This document shows, in pieces, positions 48,029 to 64,000 of a stretch of DNA of 64,000 bases. Source of the stretch: Verrucomicrobiia bacterium (GTDB lineage: Bacteria; Verrucomicrobiota; Verrucomicrobiia; Limisphaerales; UBA1319). Where the stretch lies: positions 5,056,001 to 5,120,000 of the forward strand of contig OY760937.1 in assembly GCA_963664225.1 (NCBI GenBank), read 5' to 3'. Every line of letters begins with the position of its first letter. Position 1 is the stretch's first letter. Under the pieces are notes generated by a model. That model did no database searches. It was given only the letters and a program-made list of their open reading frames with translations, and was not told the origin of the DNA. A program made the position numbers and the translations under genes.

Positions 48029-48832
48029 CTACTTAAATGTGGTTCGTTGAGCGATCCAGAGGATGTCCCGCTTGTCCGAGTCCACGGCGACAGGAAAGCC
48101 GTCCGTGTTTTTCAGAACCGGTCTTTTTGTGGATGGAGACAGCCATTTCTTAATCTCGGCGTGGCCGTCGGCGAAGGAGAAGCCGCAGGCACCATTGTGA
48201 TAGGAAGCTGGAAGGTCACTCCATGTCCAACGCTCGCTGGGGTCGGCGCTGGTGCACCAAACGTACCAACCGTCGTTAATACTGTCGGGATGCTCGTCCA
48301 GAGTGACAAAGATCATGGAGGGATTCTTGATATCGGTGAGTTTGATGAACTGCCGCCAGGCGGCGTTGATCGCGGAGCCGGAGTCGTCGAAGGGACCGAC
48401 AAACGCGTTCATGGAAATGCTCCTCGTACGCTGTCCAAAGGGGCAGGGGATAAGATCGGCTGGACATTTGAAGACACCGACGTTTTTGGAGACATAACGT
48501 CCCAAGAGCGCTCCTCTGATTAAATCCAGGTTCGTGTTCTGGGGGTCGGCGGTCCAACTCATGACGTTGCCGACCCAGTTGTTGCTGGGATTGTTTACGG
48601 TTCCGGCGGCGGTTTTATTGTAAACCAAACGGTCGGTGTAGTCATCGGCATACATGCGCCAGGCCAGGATGAGCTGTTTGTTGTTGTTCATGCACATGAT
48701 GCCCTGTCCTTTGGCCTTGGCCTTGGAAAGGGCGGGGAGCAGCATGCCAGCCAGAATTGCAATAATGGCAATGACGACGAGCAGTTCAATCAAGGTGAAT
48801 GCTCCATTAACGCGAGGATGAAACCTTTTCAT
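48029..48832 (-). CDS. Prepilin-type N-terminal cleavage/methylation protein with H-X9-DG motif
   Basis: [54 protein letters not shown]; start ATG 48832. Confidence 0.92.
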
Positions 48833-49064
48833 ACTTCGAGGGGATGCTGGAGAATTGTCGAACACCACAAAGGGGATCGCCATATTTGAATGAGTTTCAG
48901 CCTGTCGTTTTTTGCGTGAGCCTGTTGTATCAAGATACGTCGTTCCACAGGGCAATCAACAGGTCAAAAGCAATGGAATTGAATCAAGCGGCGTCTCCAC
49001 CGGCTTTGCTAAAGGCCACAGGGCCTTCGACTCGTGCCGGGGAGACGCCGCCGTTTGAACGGGA

Positions 49065-51320
49065 TTATTTGGCCAGACGATAATACCGGGTGCCAGCCAC
49101 CGGCTGTGTCACTGTGATTTGGTCGCCCACCACTGTGGAACCATCCGTCACCGTTGTCCATTGTGGCGTCATCAGGTTCGTTGTGGATTGCAGACTGTAA
49201 TCGGGGGCGTTCGTCGTCCAGAAAAGGCGCACCTTACTGTCGGGCTGCGAAAGAATGCCCAGAGTCGGGGGCGCCGCGTTGAGGGTCGCCGCGAGCAGAT
49301 ACACGATACTGTTGGTCGTGCTCGCGTCCGTCGGCTTGGCGGGCAGGACGATGCTCGAAAGCGTTTTCGACGGATTGAGCGTGTATTGGCGATCAAGTAA
49401 AACGATGCCGCCGTAAGTGGACGTGGGCTCGGCAGCGGGGGTGTTTTTCAAACCGTCGAAGACCCGATGATCCGTTTGAATCACGATATTACCCGAGTAG
49501 GCGGCCATCCAGAACATGGCGCCACCCCAGCCGTCGCCCGTGCTGGCATCGCCGATTTTCACAAACACCTCTTTTGCCGGGTTGTTGGTCAACGCGGGGG
49601 AAAGGTCGATTGTGTAATAGCCCTTATTCACTTCGTTATGTTCGTCATATCCAATGATGTCCTGAGAATTCAGAACGGGCTCATAGCCCAATTCCTGATG
49701 GTTTATGACCGACATGGCGAAGAGATTGCCGCCCCAACCGTCTTCTGGAGTGGTGTCGCCGATCCAGACCTGGAAGGTGTTTGAAGTGCTTTGGCCCAGA
49801 TATTTCGAAACGTCCACATCCACGTAAGCCTCAGCGGTATGGTTGTAATTGGATAGCTCCATTGACCACTCGCCAGCGTTGCCGGCGCGCATTTGGACCA
49901 GATACCCGTTGCCGAGCTTCATGTGCGCAATGGCGTTGGTGGACTCGGTCGGAAGAGTGAACTGGTAAATGACGTAACTGGTGCCGTCCATAAAACGATG
50001 GCCGGGATCGCTTCCGTTGCTGCTGTCCGCGTCGAACAGGAAATTGGTTTCGCTGTCGGTGGTCGGTATGAAGCTGGCGTATGTAACGACCGGATCCGTC
50101 GAACCATGCATCGACACCAGGAAGTTATTGGCCAGGTCCATGGTCAGTTTGGCGTTGGTCGTGTTGGTGGGGAAGGTGAATTTGTAGGTCACACTGCCGT
50201 TGCCATCCGCAAAGCGGTATCCGCGGCCGGTGGGACCGGACGCGCTGTTGTCATAAAGGTAGGGAGTCTCGTTGGTTGTACCCACATCGAACATGGCGTA
50301 CATCGTGGCCCCGGAGGTGTTTACCACGGGATCAAGCCGCTGCGAGTAATATACGGGGGTGCCGTTGTAGAGGCGGATCTGCTGCATGAATGGGCCCCAG
50401 CCATCGTTGGGCGTCGCGTCAGTGAACAGGATGTAGATCTCGCCGGTGCCCGCGGCCAAGAGCGTGGAAGCGTCAAAGGTGTATTCCTTCAAATTCGCCA
50501 GGTTGTGCTCCGAGTGCCCATAGATCACGGATGAGTTGGCGAGGATGGTCCAGCCGTTGGTGCGGAATTGGAAGTTGGCGGGATCATTGTCAGGTGTAAA
50601 TGACGTTGCCACCGAGACCACGAAATCGTTGCCGACCGTGATTCCGAGTGTGGCTTTTGAGATGCCGGTGGGGACGGGAATTCGATAAACCATGTAGTTA
50701 TTTCCGTCCACAAACCGCCGGGAGGAGTCCACACCGCTCGATTGATCGAAGTAGATAAATGGCGCCTCATCCGCACCTCCCGTGGTCGGGAAATTCGCGT
50801 AGGTCGTGACGTCGCTGTTATCCGTGGCATTCAGGATCGCGTGGTCAAAGGCGTTGGGACTGGCGAGCCAACCCGGCACCGGTCCGAACCGATTCGTGTC
50901 CTTCGATCCATCGGCATAATTGAACACGATTGAATTAAAGGGCCAACCGAAGCCATTTGGGGCGTCCAGCAATGCGAGATCCAGCGAGGAATAGTTACCG
51001 GCCGGGACAGTGATGGTCTGGCCATTGACGGTGGCGCCATCCAGGGTGGACGACCCCTTGAGATTTCCAAACTTGAAGGTTGTGAGCCCATCCTGGGTGG
51101 CTATCGGCACGCCGTCCACGTAGTTCGCCGGCAGAGTGGACGAGTCAACGCGGTTTCCGTTGACGTCCAGGCCGGTCCCCAGACCCAAGCCGCCGCTTTC
51201 CAGGAAGACGTCGGTATCGAAGAGAGTGTCCAGCGCGATGTGAGGCGAAGCTGCGAACAGCGATCCGGTCGCCATTAGTGAAGACAAAACCACAATAATT
51301 CGTTTCATAGTTTTCTTCAT
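49065..51320 (-). CDS. Secreted protein with three internal RFxDG..DGWG repeats nested in a beta-sandwich, plus C-terminal ..LQSTTNL..W..YYRL domain
   Basis: Signal peptide; repeats RFVDG/RFADG/RFMDG and DATPNDGWG/DTTPEDGWG/DASTGDGWG. Confidence 0.8.
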   Translation of the reverse strand: MKKTMKRIIVVLSSLMATGSLFAASPHIALDTLFDTDVFLESGGLGLGTGLDVNGNRVDSSTLPANYVDGVPIATQDGLTTFKFGNLKGSSTLDGATVNGQTITVPAGNYSSLDLALLDAPNGFGWPFNSIVFNYADGSKDTNRFGPVPGWLASPNAFDHAILNATDNSDVTTYANFPTTGGADEAPFIYFDQSSGVDSSRRFVDGNNYMVYRIPVPTGISKATLGITVGNDFVVSVATSFTPDNDPANFQFRTNGWTILANSSVIYGHSEHNLANLKEYTFDASTLLAAGTGEIYILFTDATPNDGWGPFMQQIRLYNGTPVYYSQRLDPVVNTSGATMYAMFDVGTTNETPYLYDNSASGPTGRGYRFADGNGSVTYKFTFPTNTTNAKLTMDLANNFLVSMHGSTDPVVTYASFIPTTDSETNFLFDADSSNGSDPGHRFMDGTSYVIYQFTLPTESTNAIAHMKLGNGYLVQMRAGNAGEWSMELSNYNHTAEAYVDVDVSKYLGQSTSNTFQVWIGDTTPEDGWGGNLFAMSVINHQELGYEPVLNSQDIIGYDEHNEVNKGYYTIDLSPALTNNPAKEVFVKIGDASTGDGWGGAMFWMAAYSGNIVIQTDHRVFDGLKNTPAAEPTSTYGGIVLLDRQYTLNPSKTLSSIVLPAKPTDASTTNSIVYLLAATLNAAPPTLGILSQPDSKVRLFWTTNAPDYSLQSTTNLMTPQWTTVTDGSTVVGDQITVTQPVAGTRYYRLAK

Positions 51321-51652: not shown

Positions 51653-52804
51653 ATGAATAAATGGTACGTATTCGGTCTGGCCGTGCTGACTTGTCTCTGG
51701 GTGGATGCATCCACGGCGCAGGCTCAAGAGCGAGGATTCAGCGGACTTAATCTGAATTTGGGCAACCTGTATCGCACCTCGAGCGCGAAAACCCGCTCGA
51801 TCAGCCCGGAGAATTTCACGGGCGAAAAAGGGAAGGCGGGGATGTCCACCAATGGTCCGGCCGCAGGCGCCGCCCGGGATTTGGGGCAGGGATGGAAAGT
51901 GTCTCCCTTCGTCGTCATCAAGGGAAAGAGCACGTTCACACTGGCCGAGATCGAAGGGCCTGGAGCGATCCAGCAAATCTGGATGACGCCCACAGGCAAC
52001 TGGCGATATTTCATTTTTCGGTGTTACTGGGATGATGAAACCGAGCCATCGGTGGAGTGCCCGGTGGGCGATTTCTTTGCCAGCGGTTGGGGTTCCTATT
52101 CCCAAGTAACCTCGACGCCCGTGTGTGTGAATCCCGGACGGGCTTTCAATTGTTACTGGCAGATGCCCTTTCACAAAAAGGCGCGCATCACGATGGAGAA
52201 TCTGGAGGACAAGGACACGGTTCTTTATTACCAGATCAATTACACGCTCACGGATGTGCCCAAGGACGCGGCCAATTTCCATGCGCAATTCCGCCGGGTG
52301 AATCCCCTGCCTTACAAGGGGGTCTATACCATTCTGGATGGGGTGAAGGGCGTGGGACAATATGTCGGGACGTATCTCGCGTGGGGTGTGCATAACAACG
52401 GCTGGTGGGGCGAGGGTGAAATCAAATTCTTCATGGACGGGGACCAGGAATTTCCGACGATTTGCGGAACGGGAACGGAGGATTATTTCTGCGGATCCTA
52501 TAATTTCGATGTGAACGGGAAGTACCAGGAATTCACGACGCCGTATTCTGGATTGTCGCAGGTCATCCGCCCGGATGGGGCCTACAACAGCCAGCAACGG
52601 TTCGGTCTGTATCGCTGGCACATCATGGATCCCATCCGGTTCGAGCAGGACCTCAAGGTGACGATTCAAGCCTTGGGCTGGCGCGACGGAGGCCGATATC
52701 TGCCATTACAGGATGACATTGCGTCGGTGGCCTATTGGTATCAGATGGAGCCGCACCAGAAATTCCCGGCGTTGCCCAACAAAGACGGGCTTGAAATCAA
52801 ATAG
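51653..52804 (+). CDS. Secreted GH172 (DUF2961) glycoside hydrolase
   Basis: RSISPEN.TGEKG, GPGAIQQIW.T, PSVECPVGDFF, NCYWQMPF, WWGEGEIKF, GTGTEDYF, YRWH..DPI.F, SVAYWYQ. Confidence 0.92.
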   Translation: MNKWYVFGLAVLTCLWVDASTAQAQERGFSGLNLNLGNLYRTSSAKTRSISPENFTGEKGKAGMSTNGPAAGAARDLGQGWKVSPFVVIKGKSTFTLAEIEGPGAIQQIWMTPTGNWRYFIFRCYWDDETEPSVECPVGDFFASGWGSYSQVTSTPVCVNPGRAFNCYWQMPFHKKARITMENLEDKDTVLYYQINYTLTDVPKDAANFHAQFRRVNPLPYKGVYTILDGVKGVGQYVGTYLAWGVHNNGWWGEGEIKFFMDGDQEFPTICGTGTEDYFCGSYNFDVNGKYQEFTTPYSGLSQVIRPDGAYNSQQRFGLYRWHIMDPIRFEQDLKVTIQALGWRDGGRYLPLQDDIASVAYWYQMEPHQKFPALPNKDGLEIK

Positions 52805-52833
52805 GGGTTCGGGATTAGAATGGAATTCCAGCG

Positions 52834-52874
52834 AAATCACCGCCGAACCGATTGCGGTCGGCGGTGGTTTTCTT
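52834..52874 (+). terminator. Rho-independent terminator after GH172
   Basis: AAATCACCGCCGA-ACCG-attg-CGGT-CGGCGGTGGTTT-TCTT. Confidence 0.75.
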
Positions 52875-53044
52875 GAATGGCCGGGCCTGGAGAGGAGTCG
52901 AATATTGCGATCAACCCCCTCAAAAGAAGAGGAGAGATTGGCAAAAACCGTGGAGTGTGCCAGCATGGGCGGTGTTAGCGTACCATATGGAATGTATTAG
53001 TTCGTGGGGTTGATCCCTTTGCGGACAGTCAGGGTGAAATTAAC

Positions 53045-54106
53045 ATGAAAGAACAAAAACCAGGCGCAGACGAGGCCCGAATAGCCACGCGGCGGAAATT
53101 CCTCACCAGCGGATTGTGTGGGATGTCGCTGTTTGGCGTGGGCGGAGCGTTGGGTTTACTGGCGCCGGAGACTCAGGGTCAGAATGCGCGTCCGAGCGGC
53201 CGGAAACTAGGCGCGGAGTTTTCCTATGATGTGAGTGGCTTGGGGAAGATCGATCCCAAATTGATCCAATACGAATTGGCGGCCAAGGTCACTTCGGGTT
53301 TCAAGACCATCGAGGGGATGGCCGTGGATGCCGAGGATCGCATTTGGATTGCGAGCATTGGCGCGGTGAAGGGATTCAATAAAACCGGAACGCTGGAGCG
53401 GGAATTGTCCGTTGCGGGGAAGGTGAGCTGCCTCGAAGATGGACCTGACCACCGACTCTACGTGGGGTATGAGGACCATGTGGAAGTGGTCGGACCTGAG
53501 GGGAAGGTCGAGATGCGCTGGGAAAGTCCCGCGCCCAAAGCGGTGCTGACCTCCATTAGTGCAGGGTCAAAGGATGTCTTTGTGGCCGATGCCGGAAATC
53601 GCGTCGTCTGGCGGTACGATCTTGCCGGAAAATTAACCGGATCGATCGGCAAAAAGGAGTCGGGCAAGAATTTTCATCGTTTTGTCGTGCCCAGCCCATT
53701 CTTCGATGTGCAGTTTGGTCATGAGTGTCTGGTCTGGGTGGTTAATCCGGGCGAGCATTTGGTCGAGGCGTTTACATTGGATGGCGAAAAGGAAACGGGC
53801 TGGGGCGAGACCTCCACGGCAGTTCAGGGATTTTGTGGATGCTGCAATCCGGTGCATTTTGCGTTCCTGCCTGATGGACGTGTCGTGACGAGCGAGAAGG
53901 GGATTCCAAGGGTCAAAGTGTATTCCAGCCAGGGCAAATTTGAATGTGTTGTGGCCGGACCTGAAAGCTTCCCGAGGCATTTTAATAATCCCGGCGCAAA
54001 AGTGGCGGGGCTTGGAGTGGCCACGGATTCACAGGGGCGCGTCGTGGTGGCGGACACCTTGACGGGGGACGTCTTAATATTTATGCATAGCGCCAATAAA
54101 GTATGA
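53045..54106 (+). CDS. Tat-signal NHL/beta-propeller protein with GFCGCCNP motif
   Basis: TRRKFL signal; VFVADAGNRVV, VVNPG, VTSEKGIPRVKVY; CGCC cysteine triad. Confidence 0.82.
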   Translation: MKEQKPGADEARIATRRKFLTSGLCGMSLFGVGGALGLLAPETQGQNARPSGRKLGAEFSYDVSGLGKIDPKLIQYELAAKVTSGFKTIEGMAVDAEDRIWIASIGAVKGFNKTGTLERELSVAGKVSCLEDGPDHRLYVGYEDHVEVVGPEGKVEMRWESPAPKAVLTSISAGSKDVFVADAGNRVVWRYDLAGKLTGSIGKKESGKNFHRFVVPSPFFDVQFGHECLVWVVNPGEHLVEAFTLDGEKETGWGETSTAVQGFCGCCNPVHFAFLPDGRVVTSEKGIPRVKVYSSQGKFECVVAGPESFPRHFNNPGAKVAGLGVATDSQGRVVVADTLTGDVLIFMHSANKV

Positions 54107-54351
54107 AATCGGGCCCGGAAAATTTACTGAACGAGGCGCACAACCGGCGGGAATTCTTCCGCAGGATCATACGGTATCCCGCCGCGATTGCTTTGGTGGC
54201 CATCGGCGGCGGCCTGGAGATGAGGTCGATTAAAATGGCGGGGCAGGGGCAATGCTCCCGAGGATCCTTGTGCGGGGGGTGCCTGCTGCTTACGGATTGC
54301 GAATTGCCGCAGGCGGTTCAAACGCGTGGCACAAACAAAACGGTCCGGTGA
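54103..54351 (+). CDS. Small twin-Arg/TM protein with C-terminal four-Cys motif
   Basis: RREFFR, a hydrophobic helix, CSRGSLCGGCLLLTDC; ATGA overlap with the upstream gene. Confidence 0.75.
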   Translation: MKSGPENLLNEAHNRREFFRRIIRYPAAIALVAIGGGLEMRSIKMAGQGQCSRGSLCGGCLLLTDCELPQAVQTRGTNKTVR

Positions 54352-54355
54352 TATT

Positions 54356-54925
54356 ATGGCTGAAAAAGTAACATCCCCGGCACGGCGGCGTTTCCTAGGT
54401 GATGGATTGCGCGGCGCCCTGTTGTTCTTATTTGGAGCAGCCACAACGCTGGTGGCCCGCCATAGCCGGGTGCAGAAGACCGTCTGGCAAATCGATCCCG
54501 CGAAATGCGTGCAGTGCACCAATTGCGCCACGCAGTGCGTGCTGGATCAATCCGCCGTCAAATGCGTTCAGGTTTATGGGATCTGCGGCTATTGCAAGTT
54601 GTGCACGGGGTACTTCGAGCCGGAACCCAACGGACTGAACACTGCGGCGGAAAATCAACTTTGTCCCACGGGCGCCATCAAGCGCAAGGCTCTCGAAGAT
54701 CCCTATTACGAATACACGATTGATGAGCCGCTTTGCATCGGCTGCGCGAAGTGCGTCAAAGGGTGCGTTCTTTTCGGAAACGGATCGTTTTTCCTTCAAG
54801 TGCGTCATGATCGTTGTTTGAACTGCAACGAATGCTCCATCGCCAGGGTATGTCCCGGCCAGGCGTTCAAGCGGGTGCCAGCGAGCCAGCCATATCTCTT
54901 CAAAGACCGGGAGCATCAGGCATGA
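54356..54925 (+). CDS. Tat-signal polyferredoxin (NapG/MauM-like; up to four 4Fe-4S)
   Basis: RRRFL signal; 17 Cys including CVQCTNCATQC, CGYCKLC..CP, CIGCAKCVKGC, CLNCNEC..CP; start ATG 54356. Confidence 0.87.
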   Translation: MAEKVTSPARRRFLGDGLRGALLFLFGAATTLVARHSRVQKTVWQIDPAKCVQCTNCATQCVLDQSAVKCVQVYGICGYCKLCTGYFEPEPNGLNTAAENQLCPTGAIKRKALEDPYYEYTIDEPLCIGCAKCVKGCVLFGNGSFFLQVRHDRCLNCNECSIARVCPGQAFKRVPASQPYLFKDREHQA

Positions 54926-56283
54926 AATATTTGAGCAGGATCTTTTTTCACCAACAAGACAGGTTTGAAAAAGTGCGACGGTTTGCGCCCATGCTTCTTT
55001 GCCTGGTGACCTTCGGCTGGCTATTAATGGCTGCGGTGAGCGTTTCCGGTGTGGAGCGATTTCCGCCACCGGATTTCGATGCGGGCTATAAGATGCCGAC
55101 CACCACGGCGCCTGTGCCGCGCGCGGCCTGGCTGGAGTATCTGGATGTCCTTGTGCTGATTGGATCCCTGGCGACCGCAGCCTGGTTTGTCCTGGGGAAA
55201 AAGTCCCGAAAACACATTCTTGGGCTGACGATATTTTCCGCGCTCTATTTTGGTTTCTATCGAAAAGGCTGCGTTTGTTCCGTGGGTTCACTTCAAGACG
55301 TCACACTGGCATTATTCAATAATGGATACACAGTGCCATTATCCGTGCTGGCTTTCTTTTTGCTGCCGCTGATGTTTGCGTTGGTGTTCGGACGCGTGTT
55401 TTGCTCGGGCGTTTGCCCACTGGGGGCCATTCAGGATTTGTTTCTCATTCGGGCCATCAAAGTCCCGAAGTGGCTGGAACACGGTTTGAGCGTGATTCCT
55501 TTTGTCTATCTGGGATTGGCCGTGTTGCTGGCCGCCACGGGCAGCGTGTTCATCATCTGCCAATATGACCCTTTCATTGCGTTCTATCGACGCACCGGCA
55601 GTGCGACCATGTTTGGAGCAGGTGCTCTTTTTCTGCTGGTGGGTTTGGTGGTTGGGCGGCCGTATTGCCGGTTTTTGTGTCCCTACGGCGCGTTGCTCAG
55701 TCTGGTATCGCGCGTTTCCAAGTGGAACGTTGTTCTTTCGCCCAACGACTGCCTGCAGTGTCAGATTTGCGAAGTGGCCTGTCCCTACGGAGCGATTGCC
55801 GAGCCTGGAGCCGGGGCGAAGCCGAAAAAGGGAATGGGTCGTTTTGTTGCACTGGCTTTGCTGCCGGTTTGGATCATTGCAGGGGCGTTTGTGGGGCATA
55901 TGTCGGCGGCGCCCCTTTCCAAATTGCATCCAGTGGTGGCTTTGGCCGAACGGGTGACTGCTGAGGATGCGGGCCAATTCAAGGAGCCAACCGATGCCAG
56001 CAAGGCGTTCCGGCAAACAGGGCGCTCGACGGAGGAATTGACGGCCGACGCATTGAGTATTCGCAATAAATTTCTATTGGGCGGCTGGATTTTGGGCGGT
56101 TTTGCAGGGCTTGTTTTTGCGGGGAAATTTGCGTCGCCCTGGTTTCCTTCTGCGCGCACGGTTTATGAGCCGGATCCAAGCGCCTGCGTCTCCTGCGGCC
56201 GGTGCTATAGCTATTGTCCACGAGTCATTTCACAACTGAAGAAAGCGCACTGCAATTGCGCGGTGCCGGAGATGAAGGCCTGA
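54922..56283 (+). CDS. Membrane 4Fe-4S protein (NapH/MauN/NosR-C-like)
   Basis: Multiple TM helices; GCVC, GRVFCSGVCPLG, RPYCRFLCPYG, CLQCQICEVACP, CVSCGRCYSYCP; ATGA overlap at 54922. Confidence 0.87.
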   Translation: MKYLSRIFFHQQDRFEKVRRFAPMLLCLVTFGWLLMAAVSVSGVERFPPPDFDAGYKMPTTTAPVPRAAWLEYLDVLVLIGSLATAAWFVLGKKSRKHILGLTIFSALYFGFYRKGCVCSVGSLQDVTLALFNNGYTVPLSVLAFFLLPLMFALVFGRVFCSGVCPLGAIQDLFLIRAIKVPKWLEHGLSVIPFVYLGLAVLLAATGSVFIICQYDPFIAFYRRTGSATMFGAGALFLLVGLVVGRPYCRFLCPYGALLSLVSRVSKWNVVLSPNDCLQCQICEVACPYGAIAEPGAGAKPKKGMGRFVALALLPVWIIAGAFVGHMSAAPLSKLHPVVALAERVTAEDAGQFKEPTDASKAFRQTGRSTEELTADALSIRNKFLLGGWILGGFAGLVFAGKFASPWFPSARTVYEPDPSACVSCGRCYSYCPRVISQLKKAHCNCAVPEMKA

Positions 56284-56285
56284 TT

Positions 56286-58088
56286 ATGGCAATTCCAAAT
56301 AATTTGAACTCCACGCAACCGTCTTCGCTGGAAATTTCGCCCGAGAAGGAATTGGGAAAGCGGATTGCCGTTGTCTCGTTTGTTTTTTGCCTGGTGCTGA
56401 GCGTGTTTTTGGTCGCGAACCACTTCGCAGGCAAGGCGGCGGATCCGATTCAATCGCCCAAGCTCACCGCGCTGAAAGCCGAGTTGGTCAAGCAGCCTAA
56501 AAACGATGCGCTCAAAAAGGAGATTCGGGCGCTGGACCTGGATTTGCGGCGCAAACTGGACCGGCATCTGGCATTGGAAACCACGGGCGCCTGGATGCTG
56601 GCGGGAGGTTTGGCGTTGTTTCTAATTTCGATCAAGACCGCAGCATTCCGGAAAAAACTGCCACGTCCCCCCAAAAAGGTATCCGGTCTTTCCACTGAGA
56701 GCAGGGCCATGATCCAATCGAGCGTTGCGGCGGGCGCCGTCGGCGTGGTGCTTCTGGGTATTGGATGGATTTGGACCCAACAATCTCCGACTTTGCTGGT
56801 GGCTCAAAAAACCAGCACAAATGCGCTTGCAGCCGTGGTCGCTGCAGCGGTCCCCATGCCAACGACGCCGTTTCCCGACGCGGCGGAACTTAAAGGGCAA
56901 TGGCCTCGTTTTCGCGGGCCCGACGGCTCCGGGATTTCGGCCTTTTCCAACGCGCCGGTGCAATGGAATGGGACCAACGCGGAGGGTGTGCTTTGGAAAG
57001 TGAAGACCCCGATCTCGGGTCCGAACTCGCCCGTGATATGGGGTGACAAACTTTTCTGCACGGGAGCAACGGCACAAAAGCGCGAGGTGTATTGTTATGA
57101 TGCGTTGACCGGAAAACTTCTCTGGCAAAAGGCGGTAACGCCTGCGCCTGGCGCGCCGACGGAGCCGCCAACGGTCATGGAGGACTCGGGTGGTTATGCG
57201 GCTTCCACAGCGGCCACGGATGGACGCCGGGTCTATGCCATTTTTGCCAACGCGGATGTGGCTGCGTTCGATTACCAGGGCAACCAGGTTTGGGGAACGA
57301 ACATGGGCAAAATGGATAATAGTTACGGTTATGCCACCTCCCTGATTCTTTACCAAAACAGGCTGCTCATCCAAAACGACCAGGGAGCTGCCAAGGACGG
57401 TAAATCCAAGCTGATCGCCCTGGATACCGCCACTGGAAAAATGGTTTGGGAAACCCAGCCGCGGCCTGTTCCAAATTCGTGGTCCACGCCGTTGGTCATC
57501 AACGCGGCACAAAAGGACCAGGTCATTACGTGCGGGAATCCCTGGGTCATCTCGTATGATGCGTCGAATGGAACCGAGCTTTGGCGCGCCCAGGCCCTGT
57601 ATGGTGAAGTCACCCCGTCGCCGATCTTTAACGATGGGATTGTCTATACCGCCATGGATGGGGAAAACCTGTCCGCCATCAAGACCGATGGCACCGGCGA
57701 TGTGACCAAGACGCATATTGCATGGAAGGCAGACGAGGGCTTGCCCGATATCGTCAGCCCTTTCTGTGACGGGAAACGGGTTTACGTGGTCAGCTCCGGC
57801 GGCACCGTGACCTGTTACAATGCCAAAGATGGAAAGAAGCTTTGGAACAAGGAGTTTGAAGTTACTTACAAATCGTCACCGGCAATGTCTGGCGACCGGG
57901 TTTACCTGTTTAACGACAAGGGTGAGTGCGTCATCATTCAAGCGGCGGACGAATACAAGGAAATCGCACGACCGGGCCTGGGCGAAGAAATCCTCTCCTC
58001 GCCGTCCTTTGCAGATGGGCGGCTCTATATCCGGGGCAAAACCAATCTATTCTGCCTGGGCACAAAACTGACCGCAGCGGCGAAGTAG
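56286..58088 (+). CDS. Membrane-anchored PQQ-like (BamB-type) beta-propeller protein
   Basis: Three N-terminal TM segments; WPRFRGPDGSG, NSPVIWGDKLF, DALTGKLLW, SWSTP, SSP..ADGRLYIR; start ATG 56286. Confidence 0.85.
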   Translation: MAIPNNLNSTQPSSLEISPEKELGKRIAVVSFVFCLVLSVFLVANHFAGKAADPIQSPKLTALKAELVKQPKNDALKKEIRALDLDLRRKLDRHLALETTGAWMLAGGLALFLISIKTAAFRKKLPRPPKKVSGLSTESRAMIQSSVAAGAVGVVLLGIGWIWTQQSPTLLVAQKTSTNALAAVVAAAVPMPTTPFPDAAELKGQWPRFRGPDGSGISAFSNAPVQWNGTNAEGVLWKVKTPISGPNSPVIWGDKLFCTGATAQKREVYCYDALTGKLLWQKAVTPAPGAPTEPPTVMEDSGGYAASTAATDGRRVYAIFANADVAAFDYQGNQVWGTNMGKMDNSYGYATSLILYQNRLLIQNDQGAAKDGKSKLIALDTATGKMVWETQPRPVPNSWSTPLVINAAQKDQVITCGNPWVISYDASNGTELWRAQALYGEVTPSPIFNDGIVYTAMDGENLSAIKTDGTGDVTKTHIAWKADEGLPDIVSPFCDGKRVYVVSSGGTVTCYNAKDGKKLWNKEFEVTYKSSPAMSGDRVYLFNDKGECVIIQAADEYKEIARPGLGEEILSSPSFADGRLYIRGKTNLFCLGTKLTAAAK

Positions 58089-58110
58089 TGTAGGACAGAA
58101 AAGAATTCGG

Positions 58111-58169
58111 AATTCCGGCCGGGCTGCGTTTCAACGTTTCAACGTCTGGATTGCAACCCAGCCGGAATT
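58111..58169. terminator. Imperfect inverted repeat between convergent genes
   Basis: AATTCCGGCCGGGCTGC ... GCAACCCAGCCGGAATT (15/17); the loop contains GTTTCAAC twice. Confidence 0.45.
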
Positions 58170-58194
58170 GAAAAGCTCAATATCCTTCGGTCGA

Positions 58195-59514
58195 TTACAG
58201 CAATTGCGTCTTGCCTGGAATATAGACCGGATAACTGCCATCAGGGCCGGGCTTGACGGGAGGTTCCATGCCATCGTGACAATCCTCAGGACGCGGAGCG
58301 AAACTGAAGTCCGAGTTGGAAATCTGGTCCCAGGTCACTTCCTTGCCGGTGTAGCAGGATATCTGACCCATGATGCCCATGAGCGTGCTATGCGCCATGT
58401 AATCGCCATTATTGATGGGGTTTCCAGAGCGGATCGCCGCAAAAAGCCGGTCATGCTCGATTTGATAGGGATCGGCCTTGCCTTCCCAGGCCCAGTTTTT
58501 CGCACCCCAGATGCGGGAGCCCATGATCGAGGCCTTGCCTTTGGAGCCCAGGACGATGCTGGAGTATTCGTCGTAGCAGCCGGTGGTGGTCCGGCAAAAG
58601 GCGTATAAACGGACGCCATTGGCAAATTCGTAGATGGCGGAATGGTGGTCGAACACGTTGCCGTATAGATCCTCAGTCATGGTGGAGCGTCCTCCCAGAC
58701 CGTGGCATTTGACGGGCACGGCTTCCTTCATGGCCCATCGTGCGCGATCCAGATTGTGCACGAGCGACTGCACCACATCGTCGCCGGAGAGCCATGTGAA
58801 GTGGTATTGCGTGCTGCATTGGTATTCGAGTTCGCTCAGGCCGGCCTTGCGATCCTGGACGCCGTAGGGCGCGCGAAGGAAGTTCTCCTCGATGGAAATG
58901 ATCTCCCCGATTTCGCCATCCTGAATGCGTTGGACGGTTTCCGCGTAGCCGGGATGATAACGGCTGTGAAGGCCTGACACGATGCAGAGCTTCTTTTGTT
59001 TGGCCAGTTCACAGGCGGCCTTGAGGGTCTTAATGCCCGCCGGGTCGATGCCATGGGGTTTTTCAACAAAAACATGTTTGCCGGCCTCGATGGCGGCTTT
59101 GGCGTGGAATGGATGAAATTTTGCCGCGTTGGCGATCAGGACGACGTCTGATGACTCGATGACTTTCTTGTAACCATCGAAACCGGGGAAACAATGGTCA
59201 TCATCGACTGCCATCTGGCCGGGCTTGTTTTTCTTCACGTTCTCGCGCTGGGCCTGGATGCGGTCCATGAAGATGTCGCACATGGCGACCAGCTTTGCGC
59301 CCGGGTCGGCGGTCAATGCCTGCAGGATCGCGCCGCCATTGCGTCCGCCGCAGCCGATCATCCCCACACGCAGGGTATCGTTGCCGGCGGCATGGGCGTC
59401 CTGGCTGATATCCAGATGGCCGACTGCAGCCGCAGATGCGAGCAGGGCGGAAGTTTTGAGGAAATTGCGGCGAGTCGCCTGCCGCCCAATGGTTGAGTGG
59501 GGTTGGTTGTTCAT
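58195..59514 (-). CDS. Tat-exported Gfo/Idh/MocA family oxidoreductase
   Basis: TRRNFLK signal; IGCGGR, GKHVFVEKP, WLSGD..HNLD; start ATG 59514. Confidence 0.92.
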   Translation of the reverse strand: MNNQPHSTIGRQATRRNFLKTSALLASAAAVGHLDISQDAHAAGNDTLRVGMIGCGGRNGGAILQALTADPGAKLVAMCDIFMDRIQAQRENVKKNKPGQMAVDDDHCFPGFDGYKKVIESSDVVLIANAAKFHPFHAKAAIEAGKHVFVEKPHGIDPAGIKTLKAACELAKQKKLCIVSGLHSRYHPGYAETVQRIQDGEIGEIISIEENFLRAPYGVQDRKAGLSELEYQCSTQYHFTWLSGDDVVQSLVHNLDRARWAMKEAVPVKCHGLGGRSTMTEDLYGNVFDHHSAIYEFANGVRLYAFCRTTTGCYDEYSSIVLGSKGKASIMGSRIWGAKNWAWEGKADPYQIEHDRLFAAIRSGNPINNGDYMAHSTLMGIMGQISCYTGKEVTWDQISNSDFSFAPRPEDCHDGMEPPVKPGPDGSYPVYIPGKTQLL

Positions 59515-59641
59515 AATGCTGGAGACGGGAAAAACTCTGCAAATACGCCGGGCGGGAGTCAAGACATCCGATAGGGAGAATACGCCGTGGAAGATTTCAA
59601 GGATTGAACCCCAATGAAATGATCAGTAGGTTTATTTGCAT

Positions 59642-62600
59642 ATGCACGTTGATTTCCAAAAACACTTCGGAAGAAGTGTCGCTTGTTTGTGCTTCCTTGT
59701 TTGCATGGCCGGGATTGCCGGCACGTCGATGGCGCAAAACGTGACCATCAGCGAGTTCATGGCTCTGAATACTTCCACTTTGAAGGATGAGGATGGGGCC
59801 TACTCCGACTGGCTGGAACTGGCCAACAGCGATTCGCAGTCGATCGATTTGCAGGGCTGGTACCTAACGGATGACAGGGCGGTTCTGACCAAATGGTCGT
59901 TCCCAAAGAGAGTTTTGAAAGCGGGCGAATATTTGGTGGTCTTTGCCTCGGGCAAGGACCGGACGGCGGAGACGGGCAATCTGCACACCAATTTCCGGCT
60001 CAACGGCAGTGGAGGGTATCTGGCGTTGGTGGAACCCGATGGCCGGACCGTGCATAGCGAATATGCGCCTTATCCGGCGCAAAAAGCGGATTATTCGTAT
60101 GGGGCGCGATTTACTCAGAACGTCAATACGCTGATTGGAGAAGGAGCGCTGGCGAACATACTCATTCCGACAAACAGCATCGAGGGTTCGAATTGGACCG
60201 GTGGGCAGGAGCCTTTCAACGATTCTGGATGGATGACGGGCCTGAATGGGATTGGCTATCAAACGAGGGTGGAGGGTTTCAATGTGACCTGCATCAAAGC
60301 CAACAACCTGGTCGAGGATATTGGGATGGCGGAGGAGGTGCTGGCAACGCCAACGCTGCAAGCGAGTGTGGCCACTGAGAGCATTGGGGTCATCGATTAT
60401 ATAAATACAACCGACACGGGCCATTATTCGGTGGACCGTCCGTTCCCTGGAACAATCTCCGGGGTGGAATCCGATGATTTCGTGGTGTTGGCCACGGCTC
60501 AAGTCACCATACCTGCAGCCGGGGATAGGACATTTGGAGTCACAAGCGATGACGGATTTGCCCTTCAAATATCACGAGGCACCAATCAGTTTAATTCCAG
60601 TTATCCAAGCCCGAGAGGGATGACCGACACGCTGGCTACATTCACATTTCCTGAAGCGGGCGAGTATGACTTGCGACTCTCCTTCTATCAGCGGGGTGGG
60701 GGCGCGGGATTGGAATTGTTCGCCGCCGGTGGGGCGTGGGATGCCTGGGATTCCACGAATTTTCACCTGGTGGGAGATGTTGCGGCAGGAGGGCTTACGG
60801 TACGTTCACTGCCCGCTTCGGGCCTGTCGGGTTTGAGCATTTCTGACTTCATCCAGACCGATTTGAGCGCCGCCATGGAGAACCGGGCTCCCGGGGCCTA
60901 TATGAGGATTCCATTCAGCGTCCAGGATTTGGCAACCTTCGGGCCATTGTTTTTGGAAATGCGCTATAACGACGGATTCGTTGCGTATCTCAACGGGACA
61001 GAAATCGCGCGACGGAATGCCCCGGATGCGGTTGCGTTCGATTCCACCGCGGTGACCAATCGCGCAACGAAATTTGTGCTTGAGGCTGAGCGCATCAATA
61101 TCTCCTCGTTCGAAAGCGTGCTGAAGCCTGGCACGAACATCCTGGCGATTCACGGTCTGAATGATCTTGTGAACAGCCCCGATTTCCTGCAAAACGCGGT
61201 CCTGGAGAGTGTGGAGGCGACCTCCAGTGAGGCGGGATTTTTCTATAAGGCGACCCCGGGCGGTCCCAACACGACCAACTTCATGGGCTTCGTGGATGCG
61301 CCTCAATTCAGCGTGTGGCGCGGGTTCTTCCAGTCGCCCTTTGATTTAACGCTGAATTGCGCCACGCCCGACGCAACCATTCGTTACACGACAAATGGGA
61401 GCGCGCCGACGGCGACAAATGGCCTGATTTATGCGAATCCAATTCCGGTCACCCACACGATGGTGGTGCGCGCGGCTGCATTCAAGACGAACTGGAACAC
61501 ATCCCGCATCGAAACGCATACCTACATTTTTCTCGATGACGTCATCAAGCAAACCTACCAAAGTAACATCGCCGCAGGGTTTCCGTCCTCGTGGAATGGC
61601 GTGACGCCCGATTACGGCATGGACCAGCGCGTGGTGGCTCAAAATGGAACGGACCGCTATGGAGGTAAATATGCGCGCGAAATAAAGGACGATTTAAAAG
61701 CAATCCCCACGATGTCCATCGTGATGAATGTGCAGGACATGTTTGGGCCCAATGGAATTTATTCCAATCCATTGAATCGGGGCGCGGCTTGGGAACGCCC
61801 GATTTCGGTCGAACTCATCAATGGCGACGGCGGTGGCGGATTCCAGGAGAACGCCGGTCTGAGTGCTCAAGGCGGGGCGTTCCGCGGATTTAACTTGACG
61901 CCCAAGAAGTCGTTCAGGCTTGTGTTCAAATCCATGTATGGCGCGGGAAAGCTGCACTATCCGTTTTTCGGCCCCAACGCGACGGATCAAATCGACAGCC
62001 TGACCTTGCGGGCTAATAATAACGACGGTTATCAATGGGACTCCGCTGCCGGCAAGGCGCTGTATATCCGGGACGCCTTCGCGCACACGACCGCGGGGGA
62101 AATGGGAATGGTGGCCGCGCACACGACCTACGTGCATCTTTACATCAATGGTTTTTACTGGGGCCTGTACAACCCCGTGGAGCGGCCGGACGCGGCATTT
62201 GCCTCAACTTATATGGGGGGGCAAAAAGAGAACTGGGACGCAATCAACCAGGATTCCGCGCCGGATGGGAATTACGACGCGTGGAACCGGATGCTGGCCA
62301 TTGCGAACAGCGGTCTGCTCAACAAAACGAACTACCAGCGGATTCAAGGAAACAATCCTGATGGCACGCGCAATCCAGCTTACGAAAACCTGTTGAATGT
62401 GGACAACCTGATTGATTACATGATCATCAATTTGTACGGAGGCAACATGGATTGGCCCTGGCGCAACTGGTATGCGGCCCGCGACCGGACCGGCAGCGAA
62501 GGCTTCCGGTTTTTCCCATGGGATACCGAGGCCACAATGGATTTGTTTGGCGCGGACATTAATATCGATCGCACCTCGGTTTCCGGAAACGTTACCACGC

Positions 62601-64000
62601 CGTATGCCGCGGCCAAGACCAATCCTGATTTCCGGATGAAATTTGCGGATCATGTGTACAAGCACTTTTTCAACGGCGGCGTGTATTATGTGGATGCGCA
62701 AAATCCAAATTGGAATCCGGCGTATCCGGAGCGCAACCGGCCTGCGGCGCGCTTTGCCTCCCTGGCGGACAAAGTGGAAAAGGCGATGGTGGGTGAGTCC
62801 GCCCGATGGGGGGATCAACATGTGGGCGCTTCGACACTGCCTTACACCAGGGACGAGCATTGGGCGGTGGAAAAAACAAACCTTCTTAGAAATTGGTTTC
62901 CCCGCCGGTCCGCCATCGTGTTGCAACAGTTTAAGAATGCCGGTTTGTATCCAAGGACCGATCCGCCGGAATTCAACCAGCGCGGTGGCAAGGTGCCAGC
63001 AGGATTTCAGCTCACAATGACCGCGTCCAACGGGGTGGTCTATTACACGACGAACGGACTGGATCCTCGTGGCGCGATGCTCGCCGAGGAGGTTTTTCAC
63101 GTGACGCTGGCCAGCAATAGCGCGCCGAAGAAGGTTTTGGTGCCCTCGCAGGCCAATGGCGGAGCGAGCCTGGGCACGGACTGGCGGGGCGGCATTGAAC
63201 CGTTCGACGATACCCTCTGGACTGCCGGAACCGGCGGGGTGGGGTATGATCGCGACACGACATACCTGAGCTTCATCCAGACGGATATCAAAGCAGCGAT
63301 GGATAACAAAAATGGTTCCGTCTTTATCCGCATTCCGTTTTTCCTGGATGCGACAAATCGGGCGCGGCTTAACACCATGACATTGCGCGTTCGATACGAC
63401 GATGGATTTGTGGCCTTCCTGAATGGGGTCAAAATCATGTCGGCCAATGAGCCGGCATCGTTGACCTGGGACGCGTTTTCATCGGCGCAAAATGCGGATT
63501 CCGCGGCTGTACTTTACGAGGATTTCAAGGTGGACTCCATGACGGCGGCCCTCAAGCCAGGCACGAATATTCTGGCCATTCAAGGGTTGAACCTTGCGCT
63601 GTCCAGCACGGATTTTCTCATCGACGCGGAATTGGTGGCGGGTCAGATCCAATCGCTGCCTGGGACCAATGTTGCCATGGTCTATACGCAGGCGGTCGTT
63701 TTAAGCGACTTTGCGAACATCAAGGCGCGCGTGCTCAATGGCACTGAATGGAGCGCGTTGAATGAAGCCCGGTTTATTGTCGGTTCGCCCGCGCTGACCA
63801 TCAGCGAGATTCATTATCATCCTTCGGATCCCAACGCGGCGGAAATGGCGGCTGGATTCACCAACGCGAACGATTTTGAGTTTGTCGAGTTTAAGAACAC
63901 CGGCACCGAGACGTATGACCTGACGGATGTGGTTCTGGTTTCTGGAATCCAGTTTGCATTTGCGGGATCGGCAGTGACCAATCTTTCGCCGGGCGGTTAT
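59642..64000 (+). CDS. Large secreted lamin-tail-domain / PA14-like / Fn3-associated / CotH kinase protein, 3' end outside window
   Basis: Not in the ORF track. Manual translation from ATG 59642: signal, VTISEFMALN..SDWLEL..LHTNF (LTD); SDDGF (PA14-like); IRYTTNGS.P; HLYINGFYWGLYNPVER..DWPWRNW..FFPWDTE (CotH); second LTD ISEIHYHP near 63800 in the same frame. Confidence 0.88.
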   Translation, partial: MHVDFQKHFGRSVACLCFLVCMAGIAGTSMAQNVTISEFMALNTSTLKDEDGAYSDWLELANSDSQSIDLQGWYLTDDRAVLTKWSFPKRVLKAGEYLVVFASGKDRTAETGNLHTNFRLNGSGGYLALVEPDGRTVHSEYAPYPAQKADYSYGARFTQNVNTLIGEGALANILIPTNSIEGSNWTGGQEPFNDSGWMTGLNGIGYQTRVEGFNVTCIKANNLVEDIGMAEEVLATPTLQASVATESIGVIDYINTTDTGHYSVDRPFPGTISGVESDDFVVLATAQVTIPAAGDRTFGVTSDDGFALQISRGTNQFNSSYPSPRGMTDTLATFTFPEAGEYDLRLSFYQRGGGAGLELFAAGGAWDAWDSTNFHLVGDVAAGGLTVRSLPASGLSGLSISDFIQTDLSAAMENRAPGAYMRIPFSVQDLATFGPLFLEMRYNDGFVAYLNGTEIARRNAPDAVAFDSTAVTNRATKFVLEAERINISSFESVLKPGTNILAIHGLNDLVNSPDFLQNAVLESVEATSSEAGFFYKATPGGPNTTNFMGFVDAPQFSVWRGFFQSPFDLTLNCATPDATIRYTTNGSAPTATNGLIYANPIPVTHTMVVRAAAFKTNWNTSRIETHTYIFLDDVIKQTYQSNIAAGFPSSWNGVTPDYGMDQRVVAQNGTDRYGGKYAREIKDDLKAIPTMSIVMNVQDMFGPNGIYSNPLNRGAAWERPISVELINGDGGGGFQENAGLSAQGGAFRGFNLTPKKSFRLVFKSMYGAGKLHYPFFGPNATDQIDSLTLRANNNDGYQWDSAAGKALYIRDAFAHTTAGEMGMVAAHTTYVHLYINGFYWGLYNPVERPDAAFASTYMGGQKENWDAINQDSAPDGNYDAWNRMLAIANSGLLNKTNYQRIQGNNPDGTRNPAYENLLNVDNLIDYMIINLYGGNMDWPWRNWYAARDRTGSEGFRFFPWDTEATMDLFGADINIDRTSVSGNVTTPYAAAKTNPDFRMKFADHVYKHFFNGGVYYVDAQNPNWNPAYPERNRPAARFASLADKVEKAMVGESARWGDQHVGASTLPYTRDEHWAVEKTNLLRNWFPRRSAIVLQQFKNAGLYPRTDPPEFNQRGGKVPAGFQLTMTASNGVVYYTTNGLDPRGAMLAEEVFHVTLASNSAPKKVLVPSQANGGASLGTDWRGGIEPFDDTLWTAGTGGVGYDRDTTYLSFIQTDIKAAMDNKNGSVFIRIPFFLDATNRARLNTMTLRVRYDDGFVAFLNGVKIMSANEPASLTWDAFSSAQNADSAAVLYEDFKVDSMTAALKPGTNILAIQGLNLALSSTDFLIDAELVAGQIQSLPGTNVAMVYTQAVVLSDFANIKARVLNGTEWSALNEARFIVGSPALTISEIHYHPSDPNAAEMAAGFTNANDFEFVEFKNTGTETYDLTDVVLVSGIQFAFAGSAVTNLSPGGY

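Follow-up and report, generated by a model that had tools for sequence, protein, structure and literature searches.

A conserved five-gene set of a Verrucomicrobiia bacterium encoding a putative trans-membrane electron-transfer core with NapGH-like proteins and beta-propellers

A run of five genes, here called g1 to g5, lies in a 64,000-nucleotide stretch (positions 5,056,001 to 5,120,000 of contig OY760937.1, assembly GCA_963664225.1; hereafter the window) of a Verrucomicrobiia bacterium of the order Limisphaerales. We propose, with a probability of roughly 0.55, that the products of these genes form the membrane and periplasmic core of a conserved, uncharacterised trans-membrane electron-transfer system, in which electrons would flow outward and end at the cysteines of a GCCNP motif in g1. 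All five genes are on the + strand (53045-58088) and are joined by ATGA overlaps or gaps of 2-4 bp. This arrangement had been described by a first-pass annotation made from the letters of the window alone, and the open reading frame (ORF) listing and the junction sequences return the same coordinates. Its list of products also proved accurate: an NHL protein with a twin-arginine translocation (Tat) signal, an 82-residue protein with four cysteines, a Tat ferredoxin with 17 cysteines, a polytopic iron-sulfur (Fe-S) protein and an anchored PQQ-like propeller. The genes and the motif in question are as follows.

g1, 53045-54106, + strand: NHL six-bladed propeller with a Tat signal, 353 amino acids (aa)
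FCGCCNP motif, codons 53831-53851, + strand: residues F263-P269 of g1
g2, 54103-54351, + strand: Cys4 micro-protein, 82 aa; ATGA overlap with g1
g3, 54356-54925, + strand: ferredoxin with a Tat signal, 189 aa; ATG at 54356, 4-bp gap after g2
g4, 54922-56283, + strand: NapH-like polytopic Fe-S protein, 453 aa; ATG at 54922, ATGA overlap with g3
g5, 56286-58088, + strand: membrane-anchored propeller of the BamB/PQQ_2 type, 600 aa; ATG at 56286, 2-bp gap after g4

Conservation and distribution of the gene set

The five proteins were mapped by tblastn on 108 loci, g2 being located by a profile. These loci form three sets, namely relatives of the window, genome contigs and metagenomes, the last drawn from a pattern scan in which 579 of 598 stretches were relatives and 80 were kept; only loci with enough sequence were counted. 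Downstream of g1, g3 is found in 17/18 relatives, 7/7 genome contigs and 58/60 metagenomes. In the same three sets, g4 follows g3 in 17/17, 6/6 and 43/43 loci, and g5 follows g4 in 15/15, 6/6 and 33/34. The short g2 adjoins g1 in 92 of the 108 loci (on the far side in 78, ahead of g1 in 14), is placed elsewhere in the locus in 7 and has no match in 9. The five families therefore co-occur in the same order, and the possibility raised by the first-pass annotation, that the genes are not conserved together, falls away across these loci. In two loci from contigs of metagenome-assembled genomes (MAGs; L017 and L018), the matches to g1, g4 and g5 are each split into two to four pieces that lie in different frames, which could be broken genes or assembly errors.

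The distribution of g1 is dense close to this organism and patchy further away. It is matched in 24 of the 41 genomes of the window's order (the genome itself included) and in 9/9 other genomes of its family, and at E 1e-40 or better in 13 of the 201 sampled genomes of the phylum. Eight loci from Thermoguttaceae/Pirellulales MAGs represent a second phylum. Among 1.84 billion cluster representatives, the NHL family has 1428 members at E 1e-30 or better. The family is represented in Verrucomicrobiota and Planctomycetota, and automatic Atlas labels add Bacteroidota and Acidobacteriota. A g1 homologue searched in the ESM Atlas (P0027) led to clusters named 'hypothetical' or 'NHL repeat' only. Small shares of the words of the stretch are present in sequencing runs from peat, soil and sediment, and no RNA run is among those listed as containing the stretch.

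The NHL propeller and its vicinal cysteines

In Pfam, g1 matches NHL (PF01436) at 25.3 bits, over a cut-off of 20, and SGL. Its AlphaFold2 model is a six-bladed NHL propeller, with a predicted local distance difference test (pLDDT) of 82 and a predicted template modelling score (pTM) of 0.78, and its top Foldseek matches are NHL domains (E about 1e-17), with TRIM2/3 NHL reaching a template modelling score of up to 0.80 on the target. The solved relatives returned by these matches comprise generic NHL domains, designer propellers and virginiamycin B lyase only, with no redox enzyme among them.

The conserved cysteines of g1 lie in a short loop. Residues G262, F263, G265, C266, C267, N268 and P269 are invariant in 31/31 diverse sequences; C264 is variable, being Ser in two of them, and the twin arginine (RR) of the signal is at least 90% conserved. 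In this alignment the vicinal pair C266/C267 is the sole invariant redox-capable feature of g1, and the invariant GCCNP cysteines are likely to be a redox-active site acting on a periplasmic substrate. Across loci, CCNP is kept in 119 of the 122 aligned g1 segments, a count that includes some loci twice and metagenome loci retrieved in part through that same motif. The other three are second, tandem NHL copies in which the motif reads GCHNP or GCSNP: at L044 (953-1882), L045 (1890-2900) and L050 (3378-4277), such a tandem NHL paralogue stands after g1 and is followed by g2. Replacement of a motif cysteine by selenocysteine was considered and set aside, as the 122 segments contain no in-frame stop at the motif, which is a weak test in loci partly fetched by the motif.

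The export route of g1 offers a further hint as to its chemistry. In some relatives (P0112, P0166 and P0212), a lipoprotein-type signal or a plain membrane anchor replaces the twin arginine, and this non-Tat export argues against a cofactor inserted into g1 in the cytoplasm. A thiol site, as the sequences suggest, fits such export better than a cofactor pre-loaded in the cytoplasm.

The NHL family is also found fused and in other genetic contexts. One protein of 816 aa (P0212) carries a membrane anchor, a PQQ_2 propeller, a second hydrophobic segment and an NHL propeller with the motif GFQPCCNP, a natural fusion which argues that the upstream propeller found in many loci and the NHL protein act together. 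A paralogous cluster devoid of Fe-S genes occurs at L033 (8778-13335, genome G010), encoding a Tat NHL protein with GFSGCCNP, a 524-aa protein whose C-terminal half is g1-like and bears both QYGCC and GFAACCNP, and a protein of 757 aa that ends in a PQQ_2-like propeller. NHL proteins of the CCNP type therefore also serve in other settings.

The second propeller, g5, matches PQQ_2 at 112 bits. By hydropathy, three hydrophobic segments precede the propeller, and there is no lipobox. It shares the PQQ_2 propeller fold family with BamB (YfgL) and with PQQ-dependent dehydrogenases, but it falls below both curated models (BamB TIGR03300, 75 bits against a cut-off of 285.2; PQQ-dependent dehydrogenase TIGR03075, 40.2 against 480.05), and it lacks the lipoprotein signal of BamB, which is anchored by a lipobox where g5 has its three hydrophobic segments. 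The PqqC model TIGR02111 has no match in the genome, and the control for this search likewise matched in 0 of 14 known genomes. The alignment of g5 relatives contains no invariant Cys or His, and because of this g5 is a poor candidate for the catalytic end. Of the two propellers suggested earlier as the terminal enzyme, the present reading favours g1.

The Fe-S proteins and the Cys4 micro-protein

The Cys4 micro-protein g2 has no family match in Pfam or NCBIfam. It consists of a twin-arginine motif, a hydrophobic stretch and a Cx5Cx2Cx5CxxPxA signature, and R15, R16, R24, C51, C57, C60, C66, P69 and A71 are invariant in 26 sequences. On these residues, g2 is a putative Fe-S cluster-binding protein. 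The ferredoxin g3 belongs to the Fer4 families of Pfam; of its 17 cysteines, 16 lie in four cluster motifs and are invariant in 29 sequences together with R10 and R11. A twin-arginine signal followed by four 4-Cys cluster motifs is the hallmark of NapG/MauM, and g3 displays it. By sequence the likeness to NapG is weak, with 16.5 bits against the NapG/MauM model TIGR00397 (cut-off 178.85) and a BLASTP E value of 5e-4 to Escherichia coli NapG. The twin arginine with an N-terminal hydrophobic stretch is thus invariant in g2 and g3 and conserved to at least 90% in g1, as read from the motifs, and three of the five products, g1, g2 and g3, look Tat-targeted because g2 has an invariant twin-arginine motif of its own.

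The polytopic g4 matches Fer4_5 (52.7 bits) and Fer4 in Pfam, with no match to FMN_bind. It meets the NapH models at 1e-15 and remains below their cut-offs (TIGR02163, 55.6 bits against 213.05; NF007013, 57.6 against 234), as it does that of NosR (NF046105, 34.5 against 1000). With E. coli NapH it shares 27% identity over 234 residues, in an alignment that spans both CX3CP motifs. Fifteen cysteines are invariant in 29 sequences of g4. They include C161/C165 and C249/C253, which form two CX3CP motifs, and C277-C287 and C422-C432, which form two CxxCxxCxxxCP motifs, so that g4 has the two CX3CP and two C-terminal 4Fe-4S motifs that characterise NapH/MauN. The remaining invariant cysteines are a GCxC pair (C117, C119) and C213.

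NapH has a topology of four helices. The hydropathy of g4 gives 7-8 hydrophobic segments, and its predicted topology is of eight helices, with the CX3CP and ferredoxin motifs on the cytoplasmic side and GCxC and C213 on the outer face. Compared with NapH, g4 gains a pair of helices at the N-terminus, a conserved RFPPPDF loop and two helices between the ferredoxin motifs, reaching 453 aa against 287 aa in E. coli, and the E. coli protein has no cysteine at the positions of C117, C119 and C213. The full profile of NapH/MauN, a compact four-helix protein of about 287 aa encoded with a catalytic partner such as NapA or methylamine dehydrogenase, therefore does not describe g4. Generic domain models excepted, none of the five products reaches a curated family cut-off.

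Candidate electron donors in relatives and in this genome

Unsupervised clustering of neighbours revealed two further genes directly after g5 in related loci. The first encodes a fused NuoE-NuoF protein of about 800 aa (2Fe-2S_thioredx, Complex1_51K, NADH_4Fe-4S and Fer4), and the second a pyridine-nucleotide oxidoreductase (Fer2_4, Fer4_20 and Pyr_redox). Among solved structures, the two proteins are closest to the B and A chains of 9bov, 8oh5 and 9n5u, named NfnB and NfnA in 9n5u; E values range from 1e-216 to 1e-205 for one subunit and from 1e-89 to 1e-74 for the second. The pair is therefore taken as bifurcating NAD(P)H enzymes of the Nfn-Bfu type. The gene content that defines Nfn-Bfu membership, NuoEF-like BfuBC and GltD-like BfuA encoded with the cluster, is present in related loci and absent from the window.

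This pair stands after g5 in 23/25 metagenome loci and 5/5 genome-contig loci, but in no more than 5/13 relatives of the window. An additional PQQ_2 propeller before g1 is found in 31/45 metagenomes, 7/7 genome contigs and 4/16 relatives. The family of the window carries a reduced five-gene form, the minimal version of the system. A whole-genome tblastn search found g1 to g4 once each and many PQQ_2 paralogues, and the orthologue of the upstream propeller stands alone at 439.6-441.1 kb. From the position of the pair in most loci, electrons would usually seem to come from cytoplasmic NAD(P)H or from a low-potential source, and not, or not only, from the quinone pool; the bifurcating nature of the module suggests low-potential electrons. 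The first-pass annotation had read the five genes as a self-contained, quinol-linked module. The first half of this does not extend to the family, whose members are mostly followed by the Nfn-Bfu pair and in many loci preceded by an extra propeller. The quinol-linked reading is supported in part: it keeps some ground in this genome, where the pair was not found, and less in most lineages, where the cluster is tied to an NAD(P)H flavoprotein.

The NuoEF-like genes at 327.4-332.4 kb of this genome were considered as a dedicated partner and rejected, since they sit with a HoxU-like protein and the large subunit of a NiFe hydrogenase. This locus (C1:327001-333000, outside the window) encodes a NuoE-like protein of 184 aa, a NuoF-like protein of 544 aa, a HoxU-like protein of 238 aa (Fer2_4/NADH-G_4Fe-4S_3) and a NiFeSe_Hases large subunit of 474 aa. 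A split in lifestyle between the forms with and without the pair was also discarded: oxidases of the COX1 family are present in 4/5 genomes without the pair and 5/5 with it, the blank genome being 93% complete, and their presence does not discriminate.

Proposed electron path

In the proposed path, g4 would take up electrons at its cytoplasm-facing CX3CP and ferredoxin motifs and would hand them to the four clusters of g3, and probably also to g2. The chain would end at g1, whose adjacent cysteines would act on a periplasmic substrate, and g5 would serve as a scaffold or as a substrate-holding subunit. Most lineages would draw the electrons from the adjacent Nfn-Bfu-type NAD(P)H flavoprotein; in the reduced form of this genome, ferredoxin, a diaphorase or menaquinol are candidate donors. 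We infer that the direction of flow is outward.

The contact between g1 and the Fe-S proteins was addressed by a three-chain fold of mature g3, the g2 tail and mature g1, the last being the scored partner, in three runs with three controls. The runs scored 0.57, 0.54 and 0.01 (median 0.54) and the controls 0.00, 0.00 and 0.01, the control at 0.01 being the one in which g3 was replaced and g2 kept. In the calibration of this procedure, the mark was reached by 116/157 solved complexes and 2/215 mismatched pairs, and the range at or under 0.60 holds 18 of the 157 solved complexes and both of the mismatches that pass. The runs share at least 6% of their contacts, the pLDDT of the partner is at least 80, and the resulting verdict is 'weak support'. 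The prediction, which returned no interface, leans towards g1 docking on g3.

A bolder version of this proposal is that g1 represents a new class of periplasmic reductase that works without molybdenum, heme, flavin or copper, in which the vicinal Cys pair of an NHL propeller is charged by a trans-membrane Fe-S wire driven, in most lineages, by a bifurcating NAD(P)H module. We advance this tentatively and regard it as doubtful. Possible substrates for such a reductase are elemental sulfur or polysulfide, organic disulfides and soft metals or metalloids. Cultured Limisphaera respire sulfur although their genomes yielded neither a polysulfide nor a thiosulfate reductase, according to the accessible part of the report (PMC13608581); these organisms may offer a lead, and only a lead, as to the substrate.

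Several observations weigh against an outward chain ending at g1. By the calibration of the tool the complex score is weak, and one of the three runs gave 0.01. No solved enzyme resembles g1, and its CC loop is poorly modelled, with pLDDT below 50 at 260-263. The metagenome loci were fetched by GFCGCCNP or by a second motif, so the motif counts are biased. In g4, helix 97-112 is below the hydropathy threshold and rests on the alignment with E. coli NapH. Finally, no dedicated Nfn-Bfu pair was found in this genome by whole-genome tblastn, nor in or beside the window, and its only NuoEF-like genes outside complex I are those of the Hox-type NiFe hydrogenase locus.

Alternative explanations

The closest competitor holds that the set is a quinol dehydrogenase of the NapGH type, in which menaquinol would be oxidised by g4, and g1 or g5, as terminal reductase, would receive the electrons by way of g3; in this genome, nothing further would be needed. 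Such a mode would be most plausible for the reduced five-gene form, as this genome and 8/13 relatives are without the NAD(P)H pair after g5 and the genome has a respiratory chain, with two COX1-family matches and a complex I nuoEF locus. It also draws on the alignment of g4 with NapH across both CX3CP motifs, on the matches to NapH models at 1e-15 and on the NapG-like build of g3 as a Tat ferredoxin with four cluster motifs. However, both proteins score far under the curated cut-offs (16.5 against 178.85 for g3, 55.6 against 213.05 for g4), g4 has four extra helices and three invariant cysteines (C117, C119, C213) without counterpart in E. coli NapH, and the link of the cluster to a cytoplasmic NAD(P)H flavoprotein in most other lineages points to a cytoplasmic donor for the family. 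Taken together, a quinol-fed chain seems rather improbable. The opposite direction of flow, in which the propellers would oxidise a periplasmic donor and electrons would pass inward through g3 and g4 to quinone, or elsewhere by Bfu confurcation to NAD(P)+, is considerably less likely. Bfu enzymes are reversible (PMC9304861, available part), and NapH-like modules also occur with oxidases such as ExaA (PMC8238504, available part), but neither g1 nor g5 has an evident substrate-oxidising cofactor (PQQ, heme, or ligands for Mo or Cu), and a cysteine pair would seem better suited to reduction or thiol exchange.

A different role for the same outward chain would be the supply of reductant or maturation. 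CcoG is a cupric reductase, and both CcoG and DsbD act as envelope reductant systems. In a comparable manner to DsbD/CcdA or CcoG, the chain might keep the cysteines of g1, or other thiols or metals of the envelope, reduced in support of propeller-held envelope proteins. The cysteine pair as the only invariant redox-capable feature of g1 is compatible with this role, as is the resemblance of g5 and the extra propellers to BamB-type scaffolds without catalytic residues; NapH-like proteins are, moreover, used modularly (PMC8238504, available part). Against it, clustering of the ORFs of the 52 long loci gave no recurrent gene for a thioredoxin-fold protein, for cytochrome c maturation or for a copper enzyme, and a bifurcating low-potential donor would seem excessive for the upkeep of thiols. 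We consider this role unlikely, if slightly less so than the inward flow. That the five genes are mere neighbours sharing no function is very unlikely, considering that they overlap or nearly abut, that two phyla and 80 metagenome loci share the gene order, and that a natural PQQ_2-NHL fusion exists. The reading retained is that of an outward chain from g4 through g3 to the cysteines of g1.

Relation to known systems

MauM/MauN and NosG/NosH are sister pairs of NapG/NapH. The window resembles NapG/NapH in having a Tat ferredoxin with four cluster motifs beside a polytopic protein with two CX3CP and two 4Fe-4S motifs, and differs in that g3 and g4 score far below the curated cut-offs and in the absence of the nitrate reductase partners NapA, NapB and NapC, in whose place stand the propellers and the Cys4 micro-protein. 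In NapH-like extracytosolic systems, a membrane Fe-S protein of family PF12801 acts as a modular conduit to varied periplasmic enzymes, and the reactions of most of these modular systems are unknown (Meheust et al. 2021, PMC8238504, available part). The systems of that work are defined by an FMN-binding domain flavinylated by ApbE, in contrast to g4, which lacks one and is paired with a polyferredoxin, and the available part of the source makes no mention of propeller, NHL or Bfu partners.

The best match to the pair after g5 in most related loci is StnABC/NfnABC (8oh5, 9bov, 9n5u), with the same domains; the related loci differ in that NuoE is fused to NuoF and in a shorter A subunit, of 563 aa against 963-1178 aa. 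In the survey of Bfu enzymes, 17-18 of 57 clades were left unassigned, and its available part describes no Bfu enzyme coupled to a membrane NapH-like protein and does not contain the word 'periplasm' (PMC9304861).

As to the chemistry proposed for g1, Fe-S clusters reduce a disulfide in ferredoxin:thioredoxin reductase and in heterodisulfide reductase, and in insect thioredoxin reductase, MerA and methanol dehydrogenase a redox or metal site is built from vicinal cysteines. The present system may operate in the manner of these enzymes, with one-electron Fe-S carriers that would feed a dithiol/disulfide site. None of them has any sequence or fold relation to the NHL propeller of g1, and the comparison is an analogy only.

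A functional description of the gene set was not found in the literature, the search having left out the supplementary tables of PMC8238504 and PMC9304861, and the database names are generic ('hypothetical', 'NHL repeat', '4Fe-4S binding protein'), in agreement with the first-pass annotation, which knew of no described function. What is new here is a NapGH-type module with an unprecedented partner set. NapH-like membrane Fe-S proteins are a common and poorly understood route for electrons across the inner membrane, and the partners found here are entirely different: a vicinal-Cys NHL propeller, a Cys4 micro-protein, BamB-like propellers and, mostly, a bifurcating NAD(P)H module. Should the system turn out to be a reductase for respiration or detoxification, a so far unrecognised electron sink would be gained, and one unassigned Bfu clade would gain a partner if the proposal is true. 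The five-gene form without the NAD(P)H module is a convenient minimal object for genetics and structure work.

Operon boundaries and neighbouring genes

Hairpins flank the operon on both sides, as the first-pass annotation had indicated.

Upstream hairpin, 52833-52871, + strand: followed by a U run; -27.4 kcal/mol, z -4.71, 0/200 shuffles fold as well
Downstream hairpin, 58111-58169, no strand assigned: -32.4 kcal/mol, z -3.11, 1/200 shuffles folds as well

The upstream hairpin is classed as terminator-like in the terminator listing too. It sits after the preceding DUF2961 gene and separates the operon from upstream transcription. The downstream hairpin, which has no U tail on the + strand, sits between g5 and a convergent Gfo/Idh/MocA gene. 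A riboswitch or leader RNA at the operon was considered and discarded, as nothing in Rfam matched 52600-58400 at E up to 1.

The neighbours of the operon are DUF2961, a Gfo/Idh/MocA oxidoreductase, a sulfatase and a CotH/LTD protein. Pfam and NCBIfam searches of the window and the neighbouring genes yielded no molybdopterin, flavin or heme protein, in line with the earlier statement that none is encoded at the locus, and the same searches together with the neighbour annotation gave no recognised terminal reductase or dehydrogenase in the window.

In the 52 related loci of at least 12 kb, ORF clustering returned as the only recurrent extras an FtsX permease (6 loci), an ABC ATPase (8), GT4 (4) and a RidA-like protein (4), several of the 'families' in this clustering being antisense artefacts of greedy ORF picking. 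The permease, of the FtsX type (MacB-like) and about 1100 aa, lies upstream of the cluster at L111 (5062-8376) and in five other long loci.

Elsewhere in the window, an open frame of more than 1450 aa with Lamin-tail, CHB_HEX_C_1/Fn3_assoc and CotH domains occupies 59636-64000 and runs off the end of the window. On the - strand, 49065-51320 encodes a protein of 751 aa that has a signal-like stretch at its N-terminus and is not matched in Pfam at E 1e-5; it adjoins a prepilin-type N_methyl protein at 48029-48955.

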